A stretch of 41,749 bases of DNA, taken from the NCBI GenBank assembly GCA_044870185.1, contig JBIOYL010000033.1:1-41749 (forward strand), written 5' to 3'. Shown piece by piece: positions 33,557 through 40,822 of this stretch. Below the pieces are notes generated by a model. It did not search any database. It saw only the letters and a list, made by a program, of their open reading frames with translations, and was not told the origin of the DNA. The translations under genes and the position numbers were made by a program. The stretch's first letter is position 1, and every line of letters starts with the position of its first letter. The stretch comes from Actinomycetes bacterium. Its GTDB lineage: Bacteria; Actinomycetota; CALGFH01.

Positions 33557-33661
33557 GCGCAGGTTTGCCGGCCCGCCTGGTGGTACCCACGGGCCGGTCC
33601 GGCATCTGGACCTGGCGCACACGACGCGCCCGAGCGTGGCGCCGAACAGGCCGTGGGTCCC

Positions 33662-33681
33662 TAGACAGGTCTACCTATACT
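33662..33681 (+). promoter_or_regulatory. Probable arc promoter: TATACT -10 box with overlapping short palindromes
   Basis: TATACT at 33676-33681, preceded by TAGAC-AG-GTCTA (33662-33673) and AGGT-CT-ACCT (33667-33676). Confidence 0.45.
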
Positions 33682-33746
33682 GGAGCACCGGGACTCAGAC
33701 CCCCAGGTGCCCGCCTCCGTCCACTGCCGAAGGGGGGGAACCGCAC

Positions 33747-35516
33747 GTGAAGGACGCCGACCGGCCGAGACCGCCGCGCACCCGACGTGACCCCGAGCCC
33801 GAGCTCGAGGTCCGCGAACTCCAGCGTCAGATCCAATTCCTCGAGGAGGAGACGGCCTTGCTGCGCCGCCGGCTCCAGGACTCACCCCGCCAGGTCCGGG
33901 TGCTCGAAGAGCGACTGCTCGAGATGAAGGGCCAGCTGGCCCAGGCACTGGCACAGAACGAGCGGCTGGCCGCCACCCTGCGCGAGGCCCGCGACCAGAT
34001 CGTCGCGCTCAAGGAGGAGGTCGAGAAGCTGACCGCGCCGCCGTCGGGCTTCGGGGTGTTCCTGGGCGTCAACGACGACGGCACCATCAACATCTCGACC
34101 GGCGGCCGCAAACTGCGCGTCAACGTCCATCCAGACATCGACCCCAAGTCCCTGCAGCTCGGCCAGGAGCTGATGCTCAACGAGGCGCTCAACGTCGTCG
34201 AGGCGTGCGCCTACGAGATCCAGGGCGAGGTGGTCAGCCTCAAGGAGATGCTCGGCCCGGACCGGGCGCTGGTCATCGGCAACGCCGACGAGGAGCGCGT
34301 GGTCCAGATCGGCGAGCCGCTGCGCAACCGCACCCTGCGGGCGGGCGACTCGCTGCTGCTGGACGCCCGCTCGGGGTTCGTGCTCGAGCACCTGCCCAAG
34401 CCGGAGGTGGAGGAGCTCATCCTCGAGGAGGTGCCCGACATCTCCTACCGGGACATCGGCGGCCTGGCCACGCAGATCGACCAGATCCGCGACGCCGTCG
34501 AGCTGCCCTTCCTGCACGCCGACCTGTTCGCCGAGCATCAGCTCAAGCCGCCCAAGGGCATCCTGCTGTACGGCCCGCCCGGCTGCGGCAAGACGCTGAT
34601 CGCCAAGGCGGTGGCCAACTCGCTGGCCAAGAAGGTGGCTGAGCGGGAAGGCGAGCCCCACGGGCGCAGCTACTTCCTCAACATCAAGGGCCCGGAGCTG
34701 CTCAACAAGTACGTGGGGGAGACCGAGCGCCAGATCCGGCTCATCTTCCAGCGGGCCAAGGAGAAGTCCAGCGAGGGCTTCCCGGTGATCGTGTTCTTCG
34801 ACGAGATGGACTCGATCTTCCGCACCCGCGGCTCGGGGGTGTCCTCCGACGTCGAGAACACGATCGTGCCGCAGCTGCTCAGCGAGATCGACGGCGTCGA
34901 GCAGCTCAAGAACGTCATCGTGATCGGCGCCTCCAACCGCGAGGACATGATCGACCCGGCCATCCTGCGCCCCGGGCGCCTGGACGTGAAGATCAAGATC
35001 GAGCGGCCCGACGCCGACGCGGCCCGCGACATCTTCTCGAAGTACGTGGTGGCCTCCCTGCCGCTCGACGACGAGCTGGTGGCCTCGGCGGGCAGCGACC
35101 GGGAGCTGGCGCTGGCGGCCATGATCGACCAGACGGTCAAGCGCATGTACTCCGACGCGGAGGAGAACCGCTTCCTGGAGGTCACCTACGCCAACGGCGA
35201 CAAGGAGGTCCTGTACTTCAAGGACTTCAACTCGGGCGCGATGATCGAGAACATCGTGTCGCGCGCCAAGAAGATGGCGATCAAGCGCTTCCTGGAGACG
35301 GGACGCAAGGGCATCCGGCCGGCCGACCTGTTCTCGGCGGTGACCGACGAGTTCAAGGAGAACGAGGACCTGCCCAACACCACCAACCCGGACGACTGGG
35401 CTCGCATCTCGGGCAAGAAGGGCGAGCGCATCGTCTACGTCCGCACCCTGATCGGCGGCACCGCCAAGGACCTGGGCCGGGCGATCGAACAGGTCAACAC
35501 CGGCCAGTACCTGTAG
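33747..35516 (+). CDS. arc: Proteasome-associated ATPase ARC/Mpa
   Basis: N-terminal coiled coil, [22 protein letters not shown]-terminal GQYL. Confidence 0.97.
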
Positions 35517-35607
35517 GCTCTGCGTGGGCCAGCGCGGGGCGGCCCGGGCCGCCCCGCGGCCGTCTGACCGGCCGGCTGGCGTCGAGCGGCGAACGGGAGG
35601 CGACGGG

Positions 35608-37092
35608 ATGGCCATCACCAAGGTCATGGGCATCGAGACCGAGTACGGCATCACCGTGCCGGGCTCGCCCGATGCCAACCCTGTGCTGGCCTCGAGCCTG
35701 CTCGTGAACGCGTTCTCGGGGCGTGGCCGCAAGGTGCGCTGGGACTACGAGGAGGAGTCGCCCCTGCGGGACGCCCGCGGCTTCGAGGCGGCCCGTGAGC
35801 CCGAGGCGCCGGCCGACGACGACCTGGGGCTGGCCAACGTCATCCTGACCAACGGGGCCCGCTACTACGTCGACCACGCCCACCCGGAGTACTCCTCCCC
35901 CGAGTGCCTGGACCCCCGCACGCTGGTCACCTACGACAAGGCCGGCGAGCGCATCCTGGCCGAGTCGGCCAGGCGCGCGGCCGAGATCGCCCCGGGCGGC
36001 CGCCGCATCCAGGTCTACAAGAACAACACCGACGGCAAGGGCACCTCCTACGGCACCCACGAGAACCTCCTGGTCGACCGGGCCACGCCATTCGCGCGGA
36101 TCGTCCGCGACCTGACCCCGTTCCTGGTGACACGCCAGATCTTCGCCGGCGCCGGCAGCCTGGTGCGCGACCCGCAGCAAGGCACCGTCGCCTACCAGAT
36201 CGCCCAGCGCTCGCAGTTCTTCGAGGTCGAGGTGGGCCTGGAGACCACGCTCAAGCGGCCGATCATCAACACCCGCGACGAGCCCCACGCCGACCCGGAG
36301 CGCTACCGCCGGCTCCACGTGATCATCGGCGACGCCAGCATGAACGAGGTGGCCACCTTCCTGAAGACCGGGGCGCTGGCGATCGTGGTGAGCATGATCG
36401 AGGACATGGCGGTGCCCGGCGAGGAGTGGGGGCTGGCCAACCCCGTCCAGGCGCTGCGCGCGATCGCCAAGGACCCGGCGCTGCGCACCACCGTCGAGCG
36501 CAAGGACGGCCGCAAGGTGACCGCCTGCGAGATCCAGTGGACCTACCTGGAGGCAGCCAAGAAGTACCTGAAGGACCGCGAAGCCCCGGCCTGGCAGTAC
36601 GAGGTGCTCGAGCGCTGGGAGGAGGTGCTCTCCCTGCTCGAGGACGATCCCATGAAGGCCACCCGGACGGTCGACTGGGTCACCAAGTACGCGCTCATGC
36701 AGCAGATGGCCGAGCGTGACGGCGTCGGCCTGGACGACCCCAAGCTCGCCCTGATCGACCTGCAGTACCACGACGTCCGCCCCGACCGCGGGCTGTACTA
36801 CCGGCTGGCCGCCGCCGGCCGGGTCGAGCGGCTGATCGCCGAGTCCGACATCCAGCGGGCGACGACCGAGCCGCCCGCCGACACCCGCGCGTTCTTCCGG
36901 GGACGCTGCCTGGCCCGCTACGCGTCGCAGATCGCCGCGGCCGGCTGGGACGCCATCATCTTCGACATCGGGCGCGAGACGCTGCAGCGGGTGCCGATGC
37001 TGGAGCCGACCCGGGGGACGGCCGCGCACACCGCCCAGATCCTGGAGGCAAGCCCGACCGCCGAGGACCTGATCCGCAACCTGCAGGGCTAG
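35608..37092 (+). CDS. dop: Pup deamidase/depupylase Dop
   Basis: MGIETEYGI, WDYEEESPLRDARGF (Dop loop), NGARYYVDHAHPEYS, EVGLETT, RLHVIIGD. Confidence 0.96.
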   Translation: MAITKVMGIETEYGITVPGSPDANPVLASSLLVNAFSGRGRKVRWDYEEESPLRDARGFEAAREPEAPADDDLGLANVILTNGARYYVDHAHPEYSSPECLDPRTLVTYDKAGERILAESARRAAEIAPGGRRIQVYKNNTDGKGTSYGTHENLLVDRATPFARIVRDLTPFLVTRQIFAGAGSLVRDPQQGTVAYQIAQRSQFFEVEVGLETTLKRPIINTRDEPHADPERYRRLHVIIGDASMNEVATFLKTGALAIVVSMIEDMAVPGEEWGLANPVQALRAIAKDPALRTTVERKDGRKVTACEIQWTYLEAAKKYLKDREAPAWQYEVLERWEEVLSLLEDDPMKATRTVDWVTKYALMQQMAERDGVGLDDPKLALIDLQYHDVRPDRGLYYRLAAAGRVERLIAESDIQRATTEPPADTRAFFRGRCLARYASQIAAAGWDAIIFDIGRETLQRVPMLEPTRGTAAHTAQILEASPTAEDLIRNLQG

Positions 37093-37204
37093 CCGGGCAC
37101 GCCGGGCCGGGTGGTGGCCGCCGTCCACACGTTTGCCGACGAAGTCCGCTACCGTCGGGTCGGCATGAGACAGTTGCCACGAGCGACCGAGGGTTGGAGG
37201 GAGC

Positions 37205-37417
37205 ATGGCGAAGGACAGCGGCGGCGCCGAGCAGAAGCGCCGCACGACCGGCAGGCAGGACGCCGAGGCGGCCGAGGTCGAGGCGTCGGCCGAGATCACC
37301 GAGAAGGGTGAGGAGCTCAAGGGCGAGCTGGACGCGCTCCTGGACGAGATCGACGATGTCCTCGAGGAAAACGCGGAGGAATTCGTGAAGCAATATATCC
37401 AGAAGGGAGGCCAGTGA
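37205..37417 (+). CDS. pup: Prokaryotic ubiquitin-like protein Pup (GGQ type)
   Basis: LLDEIDDVLEENAEEFVKQYIQKGGQ. Confidence 0.97.
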   Translation: MAKDSGGAEQKRRTTGRQDAEAAEVEASAEITEKGEELKGELDALLDEIDDVLEENAEEFVKQYIQKGGQ

Positions 37418-37418
37418 A

Positions 37419-37766
37419 ATTACGGAAACCGAGCTAGCCTGGGTGGCCGGATTATTAGAAGGAGAGGGCTGCTTCTTCTCTATCACCTATAAGACCGAGA
37501 ACTATGGGCCGTACACGTATGCTCGGGTGACGGTCTGCATGACTGACCGAGACATTTTGGAGCGGCTACAGCAGGTCACGGGCATCGGCCGGCTGGAGAA
37601 GAGCCGCGCCCGGGCCAATCCCAAGCACAAGCCGATCTCACAGTGGATTGTCTGCAAGAACCAAGATGCGATCGACCTGATGAAGGCTGTCTACCCTTGG
37701 ATGGGGCAACGCCGCCGCGCCCGGATCGACGAGGTCCTGGCGCTCGTCGTGGGGGACGCGCGATGA
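37419..37766 (+). mobile_element. Free-standing single-motif LAGLIDADG homing endonuclease-like gene
   Basis: ITETELAWVAGLLEGEGCF (LAGLIDADG helix) and [17 protein letters not shown]; lower GC than the flanks. The frame is open upstream of the track start (37443) to an ATT 8 nt behind GGAGG. Its stop overlaps the prcB ATG. Confidence 0.8.
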
Positions 37767-38560
37767 GGGGCCCGCTGGACGGTCCGCCGCTGTTCAGCCC
37801 GTCGTTCATCGACGCGCTGCGCGCCTACGCGCCCGAGCTGCTGCCCATGCCGACCCTGGCCGGCCCGGTGCCCGAGGTGCCCCACGGGACGACGGTGGCC
37901 GCCGTCTGCTACGCCGACGGCGTGATCGTGGGCGGCGACCGGCGGGCCACCGAGGGCCTGGCGATCGCCCAGCGCGACGTCGAGAAGGTCTTCCCGGCCG
38001 ACGAGTTCTCGGCGGTGGCGATCGCGGGCGTCGCCGGGCCGGCCATCGAGATGGTGCGGCTGTTCCAGACCGAGCTGGAGCACTACGAGAAGGTCGAGGG
38101 CTCCCCGCTGTCGCTGGAGGGCAAGGCGAACAAGCTCGGCCAGATGGTGCGCGGCAATCTCGGGCTGGCCATGCAGGGGCTGGTCGTCGTGCCGCTGTTC
38201 TGCGGCTACGACCTGCGCCGCCAGGTCGGGCGCATCTTCCGCTACGACGTGACCGGCGGCCGCTACGAGGATGCCGACTTCCACGCCACCGGCTCCGGGG
38301 GGCGGGATGCGCGCGGGACGCTGAAGAAGCGCTACCGCCACGGGCTCAAGCGTGCCGAGGCGGTCGAGGCGCTGGTCGAGGCACTGTACGACGCGGCCGA
38401 GGAGGATGCCGGCACGGGCGGCCCCGACCTGGTGCGGGGCATCTTCCCGCTGATGGCCACGGTCACCGCCCAAGGCTATGCCCGCCTCGGCGACGACGAG
38501 GTACGCACGGTCGCCGAGCAGCTCATCGCCGCGCGCGCCCGCGCCAACGGGCAGGGGTAG
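37763..38560 (+). CDS. prcB: 20S proteasome beta subunit
   Basis: Propeptide ending [37 protein letters not shown]. Confidence 0.97.
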
Positions 38561-38565
38561 CCGCC

Positions 38566-39255
38566 ATGTCGGTGCCGTCGTTCTACGTCTCGCCCGAGCA
38601 GCTCACCAAGGATCGGGCCGACTACGCCCGCAAGGGCATCGCCCGTGGCCGCCCGCTGATCGTGCTCGAGTACGCCGGCGGCATCGCCTTCGTGGCCGAC
38701 AACCCGTCGACGCACCTGCACAAGCTGGCCGAGCTGTACGACCGCATCGCGTTCGCGGCCGTCGGCCGGTTCCCCGAGTTCGAGACGCTGCGGGTGGCCG
38801 GCGTGCGCCTGGCCGACATCCGCGGCTACTCCTACGGCCGCGAGGACGTCACCTCCCGCGCCATCGCCAACTTCTACTCGCAGACCCTCGGGCAGATCTT
38901 CATCCAGGAGTCCAAGCCCTACGAGGTGGAGCTGTGCGTGGCCGAGGTCGGCGCCGACGGCAGCCCCGACGCGCTGTACCACGTGCTCTACGACGGCACC
39001 GTGACCGACCGCAAGGGGTATCTGGCCATGGGCGGCCAGGCCGAGGAGCTGAACCCCAGCCTGCAGCGCGACTACACCGACGGGCTCGACCTGGACGCGG
39101 CCGTCCGGCTGGCGGTGAGGACGCTGCGCACGGCCGCGCCGAACGCCGAGAAGACCTCCCGGCTCGAGGTCGCCGTGCTGGAGCGCGACCGCCCACGGCG
39201 CGCCTTCCGGCGCCTGACCGACGCCGCCGTCGCCAAGGCGACGGCGGCAGGCTAG
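38566..39255 (+). CDS. prcA: 20S proteasome alpha subunit
   Basis: FYVSPEQLTKDRADYARKGIARGR, YDRIAFAAVG, GYSYGREDV, LEVAVLER. Confidence 0.97.
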   Translation: MSVPSFYVSPEQLTKDRADYARKGIARGRPLIVLEYAGGIAFVADNPSTHLHKLAELYDRIAFAAVGRFPEFETLRVAGVRLADIRGYSYGREDVTSRAIANFYSQTLGQIFIQESKPYEVELCVAEVGADGSPDALYHVLYDGTVTDRKGYLAMGGQAEELNPSLQRDYTDGLDLDAAVRLAVRTLRTAAPNAEKTSRLEVAVLERDRPRRAFRRLTDAAVAKATAAG

Positions 39256-39259
39256 GCGC

Positions 39260-40822
39260 ATGACCGAGCCGCTGGACCGGTGGCTCCCAGCCGACCGGCC
39301 GACCCCGCCGGCGCCGCCCTGGGGCAGCCCGGTCGACCAGCCGGCCCGCCCCGGCCCGGCGCGCCCTGGCCCGGCGGGCTCCGAGCCGGGCCGGGACGGG
39401 CCCGGTCAGGGGCCACCGCTTGGCCAGGGGCCCGGCCCGCCGGGGTGGCAGCCGCCCGGGAGGCCGCCGCGGCGGTCGGGCCGGCTGCCGCTGCCGGCGG
39501 CGATCGGCATCCTGGTGCTCGTGCTCGCGCTCGCCGGTGGCGGTCTGGTGTGGGCGGTCGGGCCCCGGTCGTCCCGGCCGACCCCGACCACCGCCCACGT
39601 GGCCGCCCCGACGAGCGCGCCCACCACCGTCGTGCCGTCGGTGGCCGCCAACCCGCGGGCGCTCGCCGCGGGCGTGCGCGGCGTCGAGGACCGCCTCCAG
39701 CGCATCCGGGAGCTGCGGCTGCTGCGGCCGGTGCCCGTCAAGGTGGTGCCGCCCGACCAGCTCGCCCGGCAGCTCGTGCGCGACCTCGACCTCCAGGCCC
39801 AGGCGCCCAAGCTCGGCCGGCAGGCGCGGGCGCTGGAGGTGCTCGGGGAGCTGCCGCCCGGCACCGACCTGGCCAAGCTGATCCAGGACGTGAGCACCGA
39901 TAGCGTGGTCGGCTTCTACGTCCCGGGCAAGCCGCCGGCCAAGGGCCGGCTGTACGTCCGCTCCCAGGGCGGCCTGACGCCCTACACCGAGTTCGTCCTG
40001 TCCCACGAGCTGACCCATGCGCTGGCCGATCAGCACTACGACCTGACCAGGCAGGACCGGCTCGAGGCGCAGCCCGGCGCCGACGACGCCCTGGCCGCCT
40101 ACCAGGCGCTCGCCGAGGGCGACGCCACCTTCACCATGCGCCAGTACGCCGCCGAGGTGTTCACCGACGCCCAGCGGCAGGACGCCGCCCGCGAGTCGGC
40201 CCGCCAGTCGGCCCCGAAGCTCGCCGCGGCACCCGAGGTCGTCCAGCGGTCCATCGCCTTCCCGTACGACGACGGCCTGAGGTTCGTTGCGGCGCTGTAC
40301 CAGCGCGGCGGCTACGCGGCGGTCGACCGTGCCTACCGGGACCCGCCGACCTCCAGCGAGCAGATCCTGCACCCCGACAAGTACCTGGGCGCCCGGGACC
40401 AGCCCACCCCGGTCAGCGTCCCCGACCTGCGCCGCGCCCTCGGGACGGGCTGGCAGCCCGGCGCCGACGTCGGCGTGGGCGAGTTCGACCTGCGCGTGCT
40501 GCTCGCCGCCAGGCTGCCCGAGGCGGCCGCCGCCCTGGCGGCCGGCGGCTGGGACGGCGGCCGGCTGCGCTCGTTCCAGCGCGGACGGCAGACGGCGCTC
40601 GCGCTGCGCACGGTCTGGGACTCGCCGGCGCAGGCGGCGGCGTTCTGCCGGGCCATGCGCTCGTGGGCGACCGGCCGCTACGGCGCCCCGAGCGGCCCCA
40701 GCCGTTGGTCGGCCGGGACCCAGCGCGCCGAGCTGGTCTGCGGCGGGAGCCGGGTGAGCTGGCTGTCGGCGCCCGACGCCGGCGCGCTCGACCGGCTCGC
40801 CGGCGGCCTGCAGGGTCCGTGA
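39260..40822 (+). CDS. Membrane-anchored extracytoplasmic zincin-like protein
   Basis: Pro-rich N-terminus, one TM helix, VVGFY, HELTHALADQHYDL, ALAEGDA, FPYDDG, PPTSSEQILHP. Confidence 0.7.
   Translation: MTEPLDRWLPADRPTPPAPPWGSPVDQPARPGPARPGPAGSEPGRDGPGQGPPLGQGPGPPGWQPPGRPPRRSGRLPLPAAIGILVLVLALAGGGLVWAVGPRSSRPTPTTAHVAAPTSAPTTVVPSVAANPRALAAGVRGVEDRLQRIRELRLLRPVPVKVVPPDQLARQLVRDLDLQAQAPKLGRQARALEVLGELPPGTDLAKLIQDVSTDSVVGFYVPGKPPAKGRLYVRSQGGLTPYTEFVLSHELTHALADQHYDLTRQDRLEAQPGADDALAAYQALAEGDATFTMRQYAAEVFTDAQRQDAARESARQSAPKLAAAPEVVQRSIAFPYDDGLRFVAALYQRGGYAAVDRAYRDPPTSSEQILHPDKYLGARDQPTPVSVPDLRRALGTGWQPGADVGVGEFDLRVLLAARLPEAAAALAAGGWDGGRLRSFQRGRQTALALRTVWDSPAQAAAFCRAMRSWATGRYGAPSGPSRWSAGTQRAELVCGGSRVSWLSAPDAGALDRLAGGLQGP

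Follow-up and report, generated by a model that had tools for sequence, protein, structure and literature searches.

A free-standing LAGLIDADG endonuclease gene, probably a homing element, at the pup-prcB junction of an actinomycete Pup-proteasome operon

What is a gene for a putative DNA-cutting enzyme doing within the proteasome operon of an actinomycete? The question is raised by a stretch of 41,749 nucleotides, hereafter the window (contig JBIOYL010000033.1 of assembly GCA_044870185.1, an Actinomycetes bacterium), which carries the genes of the Pup-proteasome operon, mpa/arc, dop, pup, prcB, prcA and pafA, as identified from the list of open reading frames (ORFs) and by Pfam. The whole gap between pup and prcB is occupied by an additional frame for a LAGLIDADG endonuclease, which begins 1 nt past the pup stop, is shifted by +1 relative to the pup frame and leaves no non-coding room. 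With a probability that we put at about 0.72, this insert is a free-standing LAGLIDADG homing endonuclease gene, which would cleave a target in insert-free alleles, and the junction is a homing hotspot for more than one nuclease family. The comparative evidence given below largely bears out, and in that sense partly supports, the homing interpretation offered in a preliminary description made from the sequence of the locus.

The product matched the Pfam family LAGLIDADG_1 (PF00961) with an expect value (E) of 4.2e-5 and 24.8 bits, a narrow margin above the cut-off of 23.1 bits. Sequence matches in PDB were I-HjeMI and I-AniI (E 8e-7 to 7e-6), and the window motif VAGLLEGEG was aligned to ...GFIEAEGCF, the second LAGLIDADG motif of both enzymes. 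Residues G11, E14 and E16 were invariant across 62 aligned relatives, and Glu16, the terminal acidic residue of the motif, is what we take to be the catalytic, metal-binding residue. The AlphaFold2 model built from the alignment of these 62 relatives (predicted local distance difference test, pLDDT, 94.7; predicted template modelling score, pTM, 0.85) consists of an alpha-beta-beta-alpha-beta-beta-alpha core and a C-terminal helix, with helices at residues 3-16, 44-54, 81-94 and 97-112 and strands at residues 17-24, 32-41 and 73-78. The best Foldseek matches of this model in PDB were I-CvuI, I-CreI, I-MsoI, I-Vdi141I and I-CeuI (E 2e-7 to 6e-6; template modelling score 0.68-0.75 for the query), and all of the 40 matches listed, from a total of 126 at E<=0.001, were LAGLIDADG enzymes. 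By analogy with known enzymes, the protein presumably acts as a homodimer. Both the profile and the structure search are in agreement with the LAGLIDADG fold that had been proposed from the single motif.

The lack of intron RNA and of intein motifs noted at the same time was likewise supported. The Pfam scan of the endonuclease detected LAGLIDADG only, neither a Hint/intein domain nor PF02945, the profile of Endonuclease VII, and an Endonuclease VII identity of the window protein was rejected for lack of a profile match. An intein was ruled out by the frame offset from pup and prcB, the stop codons on both sides and the missing Hint domain. Rfam gave no match within positions 36800-38300 even at E<=1, indicating that there is no intron RNA around the gene, and a group I or group II intron was ruled out by this result together with the lack of non-coding room.

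The survey of the junction that the preliminary description had called for was performed with 19 pup-prcB junctions from 18 genomes of the GTDB family to which the window belongs. The insert was scattered among them: 13 junctions were empty (pup-prcB gap −4 to 48 nt), and an intact endonuclease gene was found in two genomes (G000 and G003). One genome (G015) carried a frameshifted copy, and another (G020) an insert of 306 nt, of which the 3' 138 nt are a decayed endonuclease copy (74% identity, E 8e-17) while the first 14 nt weakly match the start of an Endonuclease VII-like ORF of a third genome (G001). The latter ORF is truncated to 62 codons (PF02945, E 4.6e-9), and its ATG overlaps the pup stop. 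The one remaining junction (1/19, in G002) contains a spacer of 77-107 nt without assigned origin. A further copy, from a metagenome (L174), has lost the LAGLIDADG helix by a 5' deletion. Within the family of the window, therefore, one conserved site is polymorphic for presence and absence of the insert and also holds decayed copies. The metagenome-assembled genome (MAG) G002 has two distinct pup-prcB loci, L017 and L026, with gaps of 2 nt and 77-107 nt, respectively; this points to two strains or contamination of the bin.

For comparison of the gene with its hosts, a host tree was constructed from the dop and prcB DNA of 27 loci. The presence of the gene in any form requires 9 changes on this tree, and the well-supported branches force at least 7 changes for the intact copies. 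Sister hosts on well-supported branches differed in content in four cases, L169 and L010 (empty), L170 and L013 (empty), L171 and L008 (remnant), and L173 and L015 (Endonuclease VII). In the endonuclease tree, two well-supported clades were observed, clade A with most of the copies and clade B with L169, L172, P0010 and others, and the window endonuclease is placed as the sister of clade A (support 97/86). On the host tree, carriers of clade A copies are intermingled with carriers of clade B copies, which takes at least one replacement or transfer to explain. The endonuclease tree is in conflict with the host tree, and this conflict, together with the patchy presence, points to the non-vertical inheritance anticipated in the preliminary description, i.e. 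to horizontal spread; ancient polymorphism is a possible alternative to such spread. The ratio of nonsynonymous to synonymous divergence (dN/dS) was 0.06-0.32 in 24/28 pairs where synonymous divergence (dS) could be estimated, and no indels were found among 8 intact copies; the endonuclease is thus under strong purifying selection. In matched host pairs, the dS of the endonuclease amounts to 2-10 times the prcB value, which likewise speaks against vertical inheritance. In the clade A copies L016, L020, L168 and L171, an in-frame ATG lies further upstream and lengthens the product by about 19 residues, among them a conserved ...LWTGRI.GP... sequence. This 5' extension is absent from the window copy and from clade B, and many database entries are 134 residues long.

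The relatives of the protein differ sharply in genomic position according to their distance. A large protein database contained 91 relatives, of which about 45, at 53-74% identity, were all derived from metagenomes or MAGs. Close homologues were located between pup and prcB in 2/2 genome contigs (70-73% identity), both from MAGs labelled 'Actinomycetes bacterium', and in 8/8 metagenome contigs (57-74%), while distant homologues were found there in 0/78 genome contigs (<=43%) and 0/72 metagenome contigs (<=46%). The window genome itself has a single copy. As the best reading of this pattern, the endonuclease would belong to a clade confined to the pup-prcB junction of one soil actinomycete family. 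Small relatives were also detected in 172 phage records, mostly from actinophages, all with less than 60% identity; the 15 listed, mainly from Arthrobacter, Mycobacterium, Microbacterium and Streptomyces phages, were 38-41% identical, with more than 90% of the length aligned. In phage Caron the LAGLIDADG gene is free-standing between other genes. Small actinophage genes of this type are a possible source of the pup-prcB clade.

The insert is not the only altered part of the locus. Between about 37340 and 37700 the G+C content drops to 50-55%, from 70-78% on either side. The fraction of G or C at third codon positions (GC3) is 0.76 in the last 25 codons of pup and 0.77 in the insert, whereas pup codons 1-45 have 0.98 and the genes mpa, dop, prcB, prcA and pafA have 0.96-0.98. 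From both profiles, the island of foreign composition starts inside pup and continues unbroken into the insert. The A/T-ending codons in the last 25 of pup are exactly the six that had been listed at first reading, GAT, GAA, GAA, CAA, TAT and GGA, the last at 37406-37408. The fraction of A or T at third positions (AT3) was then compared between 12 LAGLIDADG-bearing and 12 empty alleles of the family (14 empty alleles when G002 is counted). Counted back from the pup stop, codons −25 to −16 gave 0.28 for LAGLIDADG alleles and 0.03 for empty alleles, and codons −15 to −6 gave 0.29 and 0.07. Insert-bearing and empty alleles did not differ in pup codons 1-45 (0.07 and 0.09), in the last 5 pup codons (0.28 and 0.32) or in prcB codons 1-50 (0.07 and 0.09 in codons 1-25). 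At individual positions, GAA at pup codon −16 was found in 10/11 insert alleles against 1/12 empty alleles (3/14 with G002), and CAA TAT at codons −8 and −7 in 9/12 LAGLIDADG alleles against 0/14 empty alleles. For closely related hosts with and without the insert, the divergence of the tract, from pairwise alignment, was higher than that of prcB in 6/7 pairs, about 2-3 times (for example 0.117 against 0.045, and 0.100 against 0.032), while for pairs of empty alleles the tract was less diverged than prcB in 8/8.

The last pup codon (37412-37414 in the window) alternates between Gln (GGQ) and Glu (GGE) among close relatives (window, L007-L027 and L168-L175). A Pup protein ending in Gln needs deamidation by Dop before ligation; one ending in Glu does not. 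Within the crown group of genus g4, 6/6 empty alleles end in Glu, and 2/8 LAGLIDADG or remnant alleles (L168 and L171) end in Gln. The near-identical hosts L171 and L008 end in Gln and Glu, respectively, and it may be that the GGQ/GGE ending travels with the insert.

Is the same junction used by nucleases elsewhere? The gene pup was found in 188/401 sampled Actinomycetota genomes, a tally that includes some genomes marked as unpublished; these were left out of the set that was then read, which comprised 120 pup loci of 119 genomes from other families than that of the window. At 73/120 loci prcB directly follows pup, and at 20/120 no prcB was found within 1.6 kb. An Endonuclease VII sequence is located between pup and prcB at 20/120 loci of 5 families (20/98 of those where prcB follows pup). 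At 2/120 loci of 2 further families it lies downstream of pup and prcB is not within range; other pup-prcB inserts were found at 5/120. A LAGLIDADG gene at the junction was found at 0/120 of these loci. An Endonuclease VII-domain gene at this position, attributed to Streptomyces in the preliminary description, is therefore a real feature of the junction, at 20/120 loci outside the family and as one truncated copy within it. By family, such junctions were found in 10/11 genomes of f21, 5/11 of f3 and 3/10 of f11, in addition to f71 and f75; genus g31, with genomes of 7-10 Mb, is among the carriers. The intact ORFs encode 196-228 residues (PF02945, E 1e-16 to 4e-26), and other junction copies are frameshifted or reduced to remnants.

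Two or more Endonuclease VII matches were detected at 8 loci, of which 6 are tandem near full-length copies (four in f3, one in f11 and one in f80). The pup-prcB gap of tandem loci is about 830-930 nt (L256, L269, L270, L272 and L290 of f3; L298 of f11; L261 of f80). A pup-prcB insert of 1375 nt (L143, genome G083, family f8) contains a minus-strand ORF with a P-loop-like GAGKTT and no nuclease match.

A codon tract similar to that of the LAGLIDADG alleles was observed beside some of the Endonuclease VII genes. In f21, alleles with intact or frameshifted genes showed an AT3 of 0.36 in the tract (pup codons −25 to −6) and of 0.09 upstream of it, remnant alleles one of 0.16 and 0.03, respectively, and the signature was also present in G001 with its truncated gene.

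These observations are consistent with a cycle of intronless homing. The endonuclease would cut insert-free pup-prcB alleles, and the break would be repaired from an insert-bearing allele, so that the gene is copied in together with the last 60-75 nt of pup. The insert-like composition and the A/T-ending synonyms of the pup 3' stretch would then be found there because this stretch was, as proposed, co-copied with the gene. Carriers would escape cutting either through synonymous pup changes that abolish the target or through its interruption by the insertion; in the latter case the altered codons would be only a co-conversion tract, which is as viable as resistance through the codons. In the window genome the canonical start has been lost, and translation, if any, would begin from ATT at 37419. 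Harm to the host would be low because the gene lies between genes, the Pup protein is unchanged, and the overlap of the endonuclease stop with the prcB start keeps the operon working. A wider version of this scheme, in which the LAGLIDADG and Endonuclease VII ('DHHRN') families compete throughout the phylum for the ultra-conserved pup 3' sequence and replace one another, co-conversion rewriting the last pup codons including the Gln/Glu codon, is conceivable but doubtful.

Several observations weigh against the homing interpretation. For the two tract bins, Mann-Whitney tests gave p values of 1.5e-4 and 2e-4 that ignore the relatedness of alleles. Only 4 independent pairs on well-supported branches are available (direction 3.6/4, p about 0.125), so that the pair test cannot reach significance. 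The window tract is no more diverged from those of empty alleles (0.10-0.17) than prcB is (0.16-0.17), because the nearest relatives of the window are distant. The prediction that insert-free relatives would be without the A/T-ending codons holds for the family at AT3 0.03-0.07 against 0.28-0.29, except for the two insert-free alleles of G002, a single genome with lower GC3 throughout, which are also A/T-ending there. The Endonuclease VII families f3 and f11 showed no local AT3 enrichment. The higher dS of the endonuclease compared with prcB may be due in part to weaker codon bias and not by greater age, and the frameshift of G015 could be a sequencing error of the MAG. A scan for pseudo-palindromic 22-mers at five empty junctions (pup −120 to prcB +60 nt) gave at best 7-8 of 11 pairs, compared with a mean maximum of about 7 pairs for shuffled sequence; with scores at this chance level, no target site could be proposed. 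No RNA runs were listed for window positions 37150-38000. In addition, the window copy lacks a canonical start codon where its relatives begin, and may be unexpressed or heading to decay.

The last point leads to the question whether the window gene is an inactive relic of a homing endonuclease, silenced by a recent loss of its start from ATG or TTG to ATT, which we consider unlikely, though to be taken seriously. The 115-codon LAGLIDADG frame that fills the gap and overlaps the prcB start was correctly described at the outset; a canonical start at its 5' end was not found. The 5' end of the frame is ATT at 37419, the aligned residue being the initiator ATG in homologues and TTG in L169. Downstream of an in-frame stop at 37386-37388, the only ATG, GTG or TTG codon is GTG at 37443, from which the ORF list counts 107 codons; a start there would truncate the helix, and no evident ribosome-binding site precedes it. 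Decay is, moreover, frequent at this junction, as seen from the frameshift, the 5' deletion and the remnant. Against a relic, the frame of 115 codons is intact, its terminal branch in the tree is long (0.16; dS about 1.5 against other copies), dN/dS values between the window copy and the others are 0.11-0.20, and the 8 codons from ATT to GTG retain the conserved E, L and W of the family. The 8/8 intact homologues examined likewise have exactly 115 codons when counted from the position equivalent to ATT. A strong GGGAGG is located 8 nt upstream of ATT. AUU is a rare start codon in bacteria. Weak initiation at ATT 37419, served by GGGAGG, or re-initiation after the pup stop might be used in the window genome, and with a start of either kind expression of the endonuclease would probably be low.

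The pup stop region, with a ribosome-binding-like site before UGA, presumably resembles the prfB signal. A +1 frameshift fusion of pup and the endonuclease at the pup stop is unlikely, since the homologues have their own starts; it is also opposed by their spacers of 5-98 nt, with stop codons and differing frame offsets. The LAGLIDADG motif includes two adjacent TTA codons (37452-37457); none occurs in the six operon genes examined. High-GC actinomycetes use TTA very rarely, and in Streptomyces this codon is under developmental regulation.

If the A/T-ending pup codons were instead a local adaptation for downstream expression, opening the mRNA structure or supplying a ribosome-binding site, they would mark neither co-conversion nor immunity. 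The GGGAGG before the endonuclease start is indeed created by a GGA among the Lys-Gly-Gly codons of the window and of L169, and pup codon −3 is GGA in 5/12 LAGLIDADG-bearing alleles and 0/14 empty alleles. The genes of clade A, however, start 60-100 nt past the pup stop, more than 100 nt from a tract with the same changes, and the enrichment spans codons −25 to −6, sparing the last 5 beside the start. The decayed remnant allele L008 retains part of the tract, and the GC3 of the tract equals that of the insert. This explanation is therefore improbable.

A domesticated nuclease slot had also been suggested for the junction, where LAGLIDADG proteins here and Endonuclease VII proteins elsewhere would serve the host, for instance in DNA repair or as regulators that bind DNA, and would be expressed along with the proteasome. 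Strong purifying selection and constant length would agree with such a role, as would the Endonuclease VII junctions in 10/11 genomes of one genus and the stop/start overlap with prcB (ATGA or GTGA), which is common to every homologous locus reaching prcB. A host function is, however, difficult to reconcile with the 13/19 empty junctions of the family, the direct pup-prcB contact at 73/120 loci elsewhere, the difference in presence between close hosts, and the many broken copies, including 5-6/11 in the Endonuclease VII-rich genus. The presence of two unrelated folds at one site is also better explained by a common target than by a common role in the host, and domestication appears very improbable. 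The weakest alternative, that assembly or binning joined foreign low-GC DNA to the operon, could appeal to the fragmented MAG (475 contigs) and the differing composition of the insert, and can be dismissed from ten loci in other assemblies with a homologue at the same place and from Logan contigs that bridge pup, insert and prcB (36900-38009 with 3 differences; 37240-38088 with 1 difference; none at 37419-37421 among the differences listed). These contigs stem from two runs within a single soil-metagenome study, and the runs may be the MAG's own source.

The coordinates of the locus are summarized in Table 1. Between prcA and pafA, an additional ORF of 520 codons (39260-40822) has a Pro/Gly-rich N-terminus, a hydrophobic segment and a HELTH (HExxH-like) motif, which suggests that its product might be a membrane-anchored metalloprotease.

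Table 1. Features of the Pup-proteasome operon and of the endonuclease insert (window coordinates).
Feature	Position	Strand	Remarks
mpa/arc	33636-35516		operon gene
dop	35524-37092		operon gene
pup	37205..37417	+	70 codons, end ...QKGGQ, stop TGA 37415-37417; Pfam Pup PF05639, E=2.1e-23
Altered pup tract, codons −25 to −6	37340..37399	+	5/6 A/T-ending codons: GAT, GAA, GAA, CAA, TAT
Shine-Dalgarno-like GGGAGG in pup Lys-Gly-Gly codons (AAG GGA GGC)	37405..37410	+	8 nt before ATT 37419; putative function
Single-motif free-standing LAGLIDADG endonuclease gene	37419..37766	+	115 codons from ATT, then TGA
LAGLIDADG motif AWVAGLLEGEGCF	37437..37475	+	putative catalytic Glu16 at 37464-37466; two TTA codons inside
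First canonical start, GTG	37443..37445	+	loses residues 1-8 of LAGLIDADG helix (model helix 3-16)
ATGA overlap, endonuclease stop/prcB start	37763..37766	+	read from sequence
prcB (proteasome beta subunit)	37763..38560	+	Pfam Proteasome PF00227, E=1.7e-34
prcA	38566-39255		operon gene
pafA	from 40856		operon gene

No mention of a nuclease gene at the pup-prcB junction was found in the searchable literature, and the term 'endonuclease' was absent from the searchable text of two reviews on pupylation (PMC3511204, PMC8223512). A chromosomal free-standing LAGLIDADG homing gene at a junction also used by unrelated nucleases would accordingly be without an earlier account in that literature. The comparative signs of a homing cycle are now seen in bacterial chromosomes, inside a well-studied housekeeping operon. 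If the homing interpretation is true, the junction would be a natural system for the study of homing and nuclease competition in cells, and the proteins would provide new LAGLIDADG scaffolds that are compact, at 115 residues, and have a defined target in nature. The pup 3' end, including GGQ/GGE, would then be horizontally exchangeable, which calls for caution. If nuclease families do compete for this sequence throughout the phylum, selfish DNA would even shape a functional feature of the pupylation system, the Pup end and its need for Dop.

Knowledge of intronless homing, and of homing endonuclease genes that stand alone, comes mainly from phages. The seg and mob genes of T-even phages are free-standing between conserved genes, move by intronless homing with co-conversion of the flanks, and have immunity through sequence differences; their enzymes are GIY-YIG or HNH proteins in phage genomes, and their spread was shown in mixed infections. 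Like seg and mob, the window gene is located between conserved genes and would presumably spread by cutting a nearby site. Unlike them, its enzyme is a LAGLIDADG protein and its host a cellular chromosome, so that transfer between cells must precede homing. The small LAGLIDADG genes of actinophages belong to the same single-domain family, but are in phages and in other neighbourhoods, whereas the pup-prcB clade is chromosomal and site-specific. As for the LAGLIDADG enzymes of known structure, I-CreI, I-CvuI, I-MsoI, I-CeuI and I-Vdi141I share with the window protein one LAGLIDADG motif with a terminal acidic residue and the same core. Enzymes of the I-CreI type have 150-220 residues and are encoded in group I or archaeal introns of ribosomal RNA genes; the window protein, known from its sequence and model, has 115 residues and 12-25% identity to them, and is encoded free-standing between bacterial protein genes.

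For the Endonuclease VII genes of the junction, F-CphI of a cyanophage, an Endonuclease VII-motif ('DHHRN') protein reported as a homing endonuclease (PMC6083498), represents a precedent for a homing role of this family; its fold differs from that of the window protein. The supplement of the same paper lists 313 Endonuclease VII-motif proteins, which may include actinobacterial junction genes, and a term search of its main text found no Streptomyces, Actinobacteria, Mycobacterium or proteasome. A parallel to the site itself is given by ribosomal DNA, where, as at pup-prcB, one conserved site is independently occupied by nucleases of different folds. The ribosomal genes of this kind are intron-borne and their hosts come from different domains of life, whereas the pup-prcB genes are free-standing and are found within one phylum, and even within one family.

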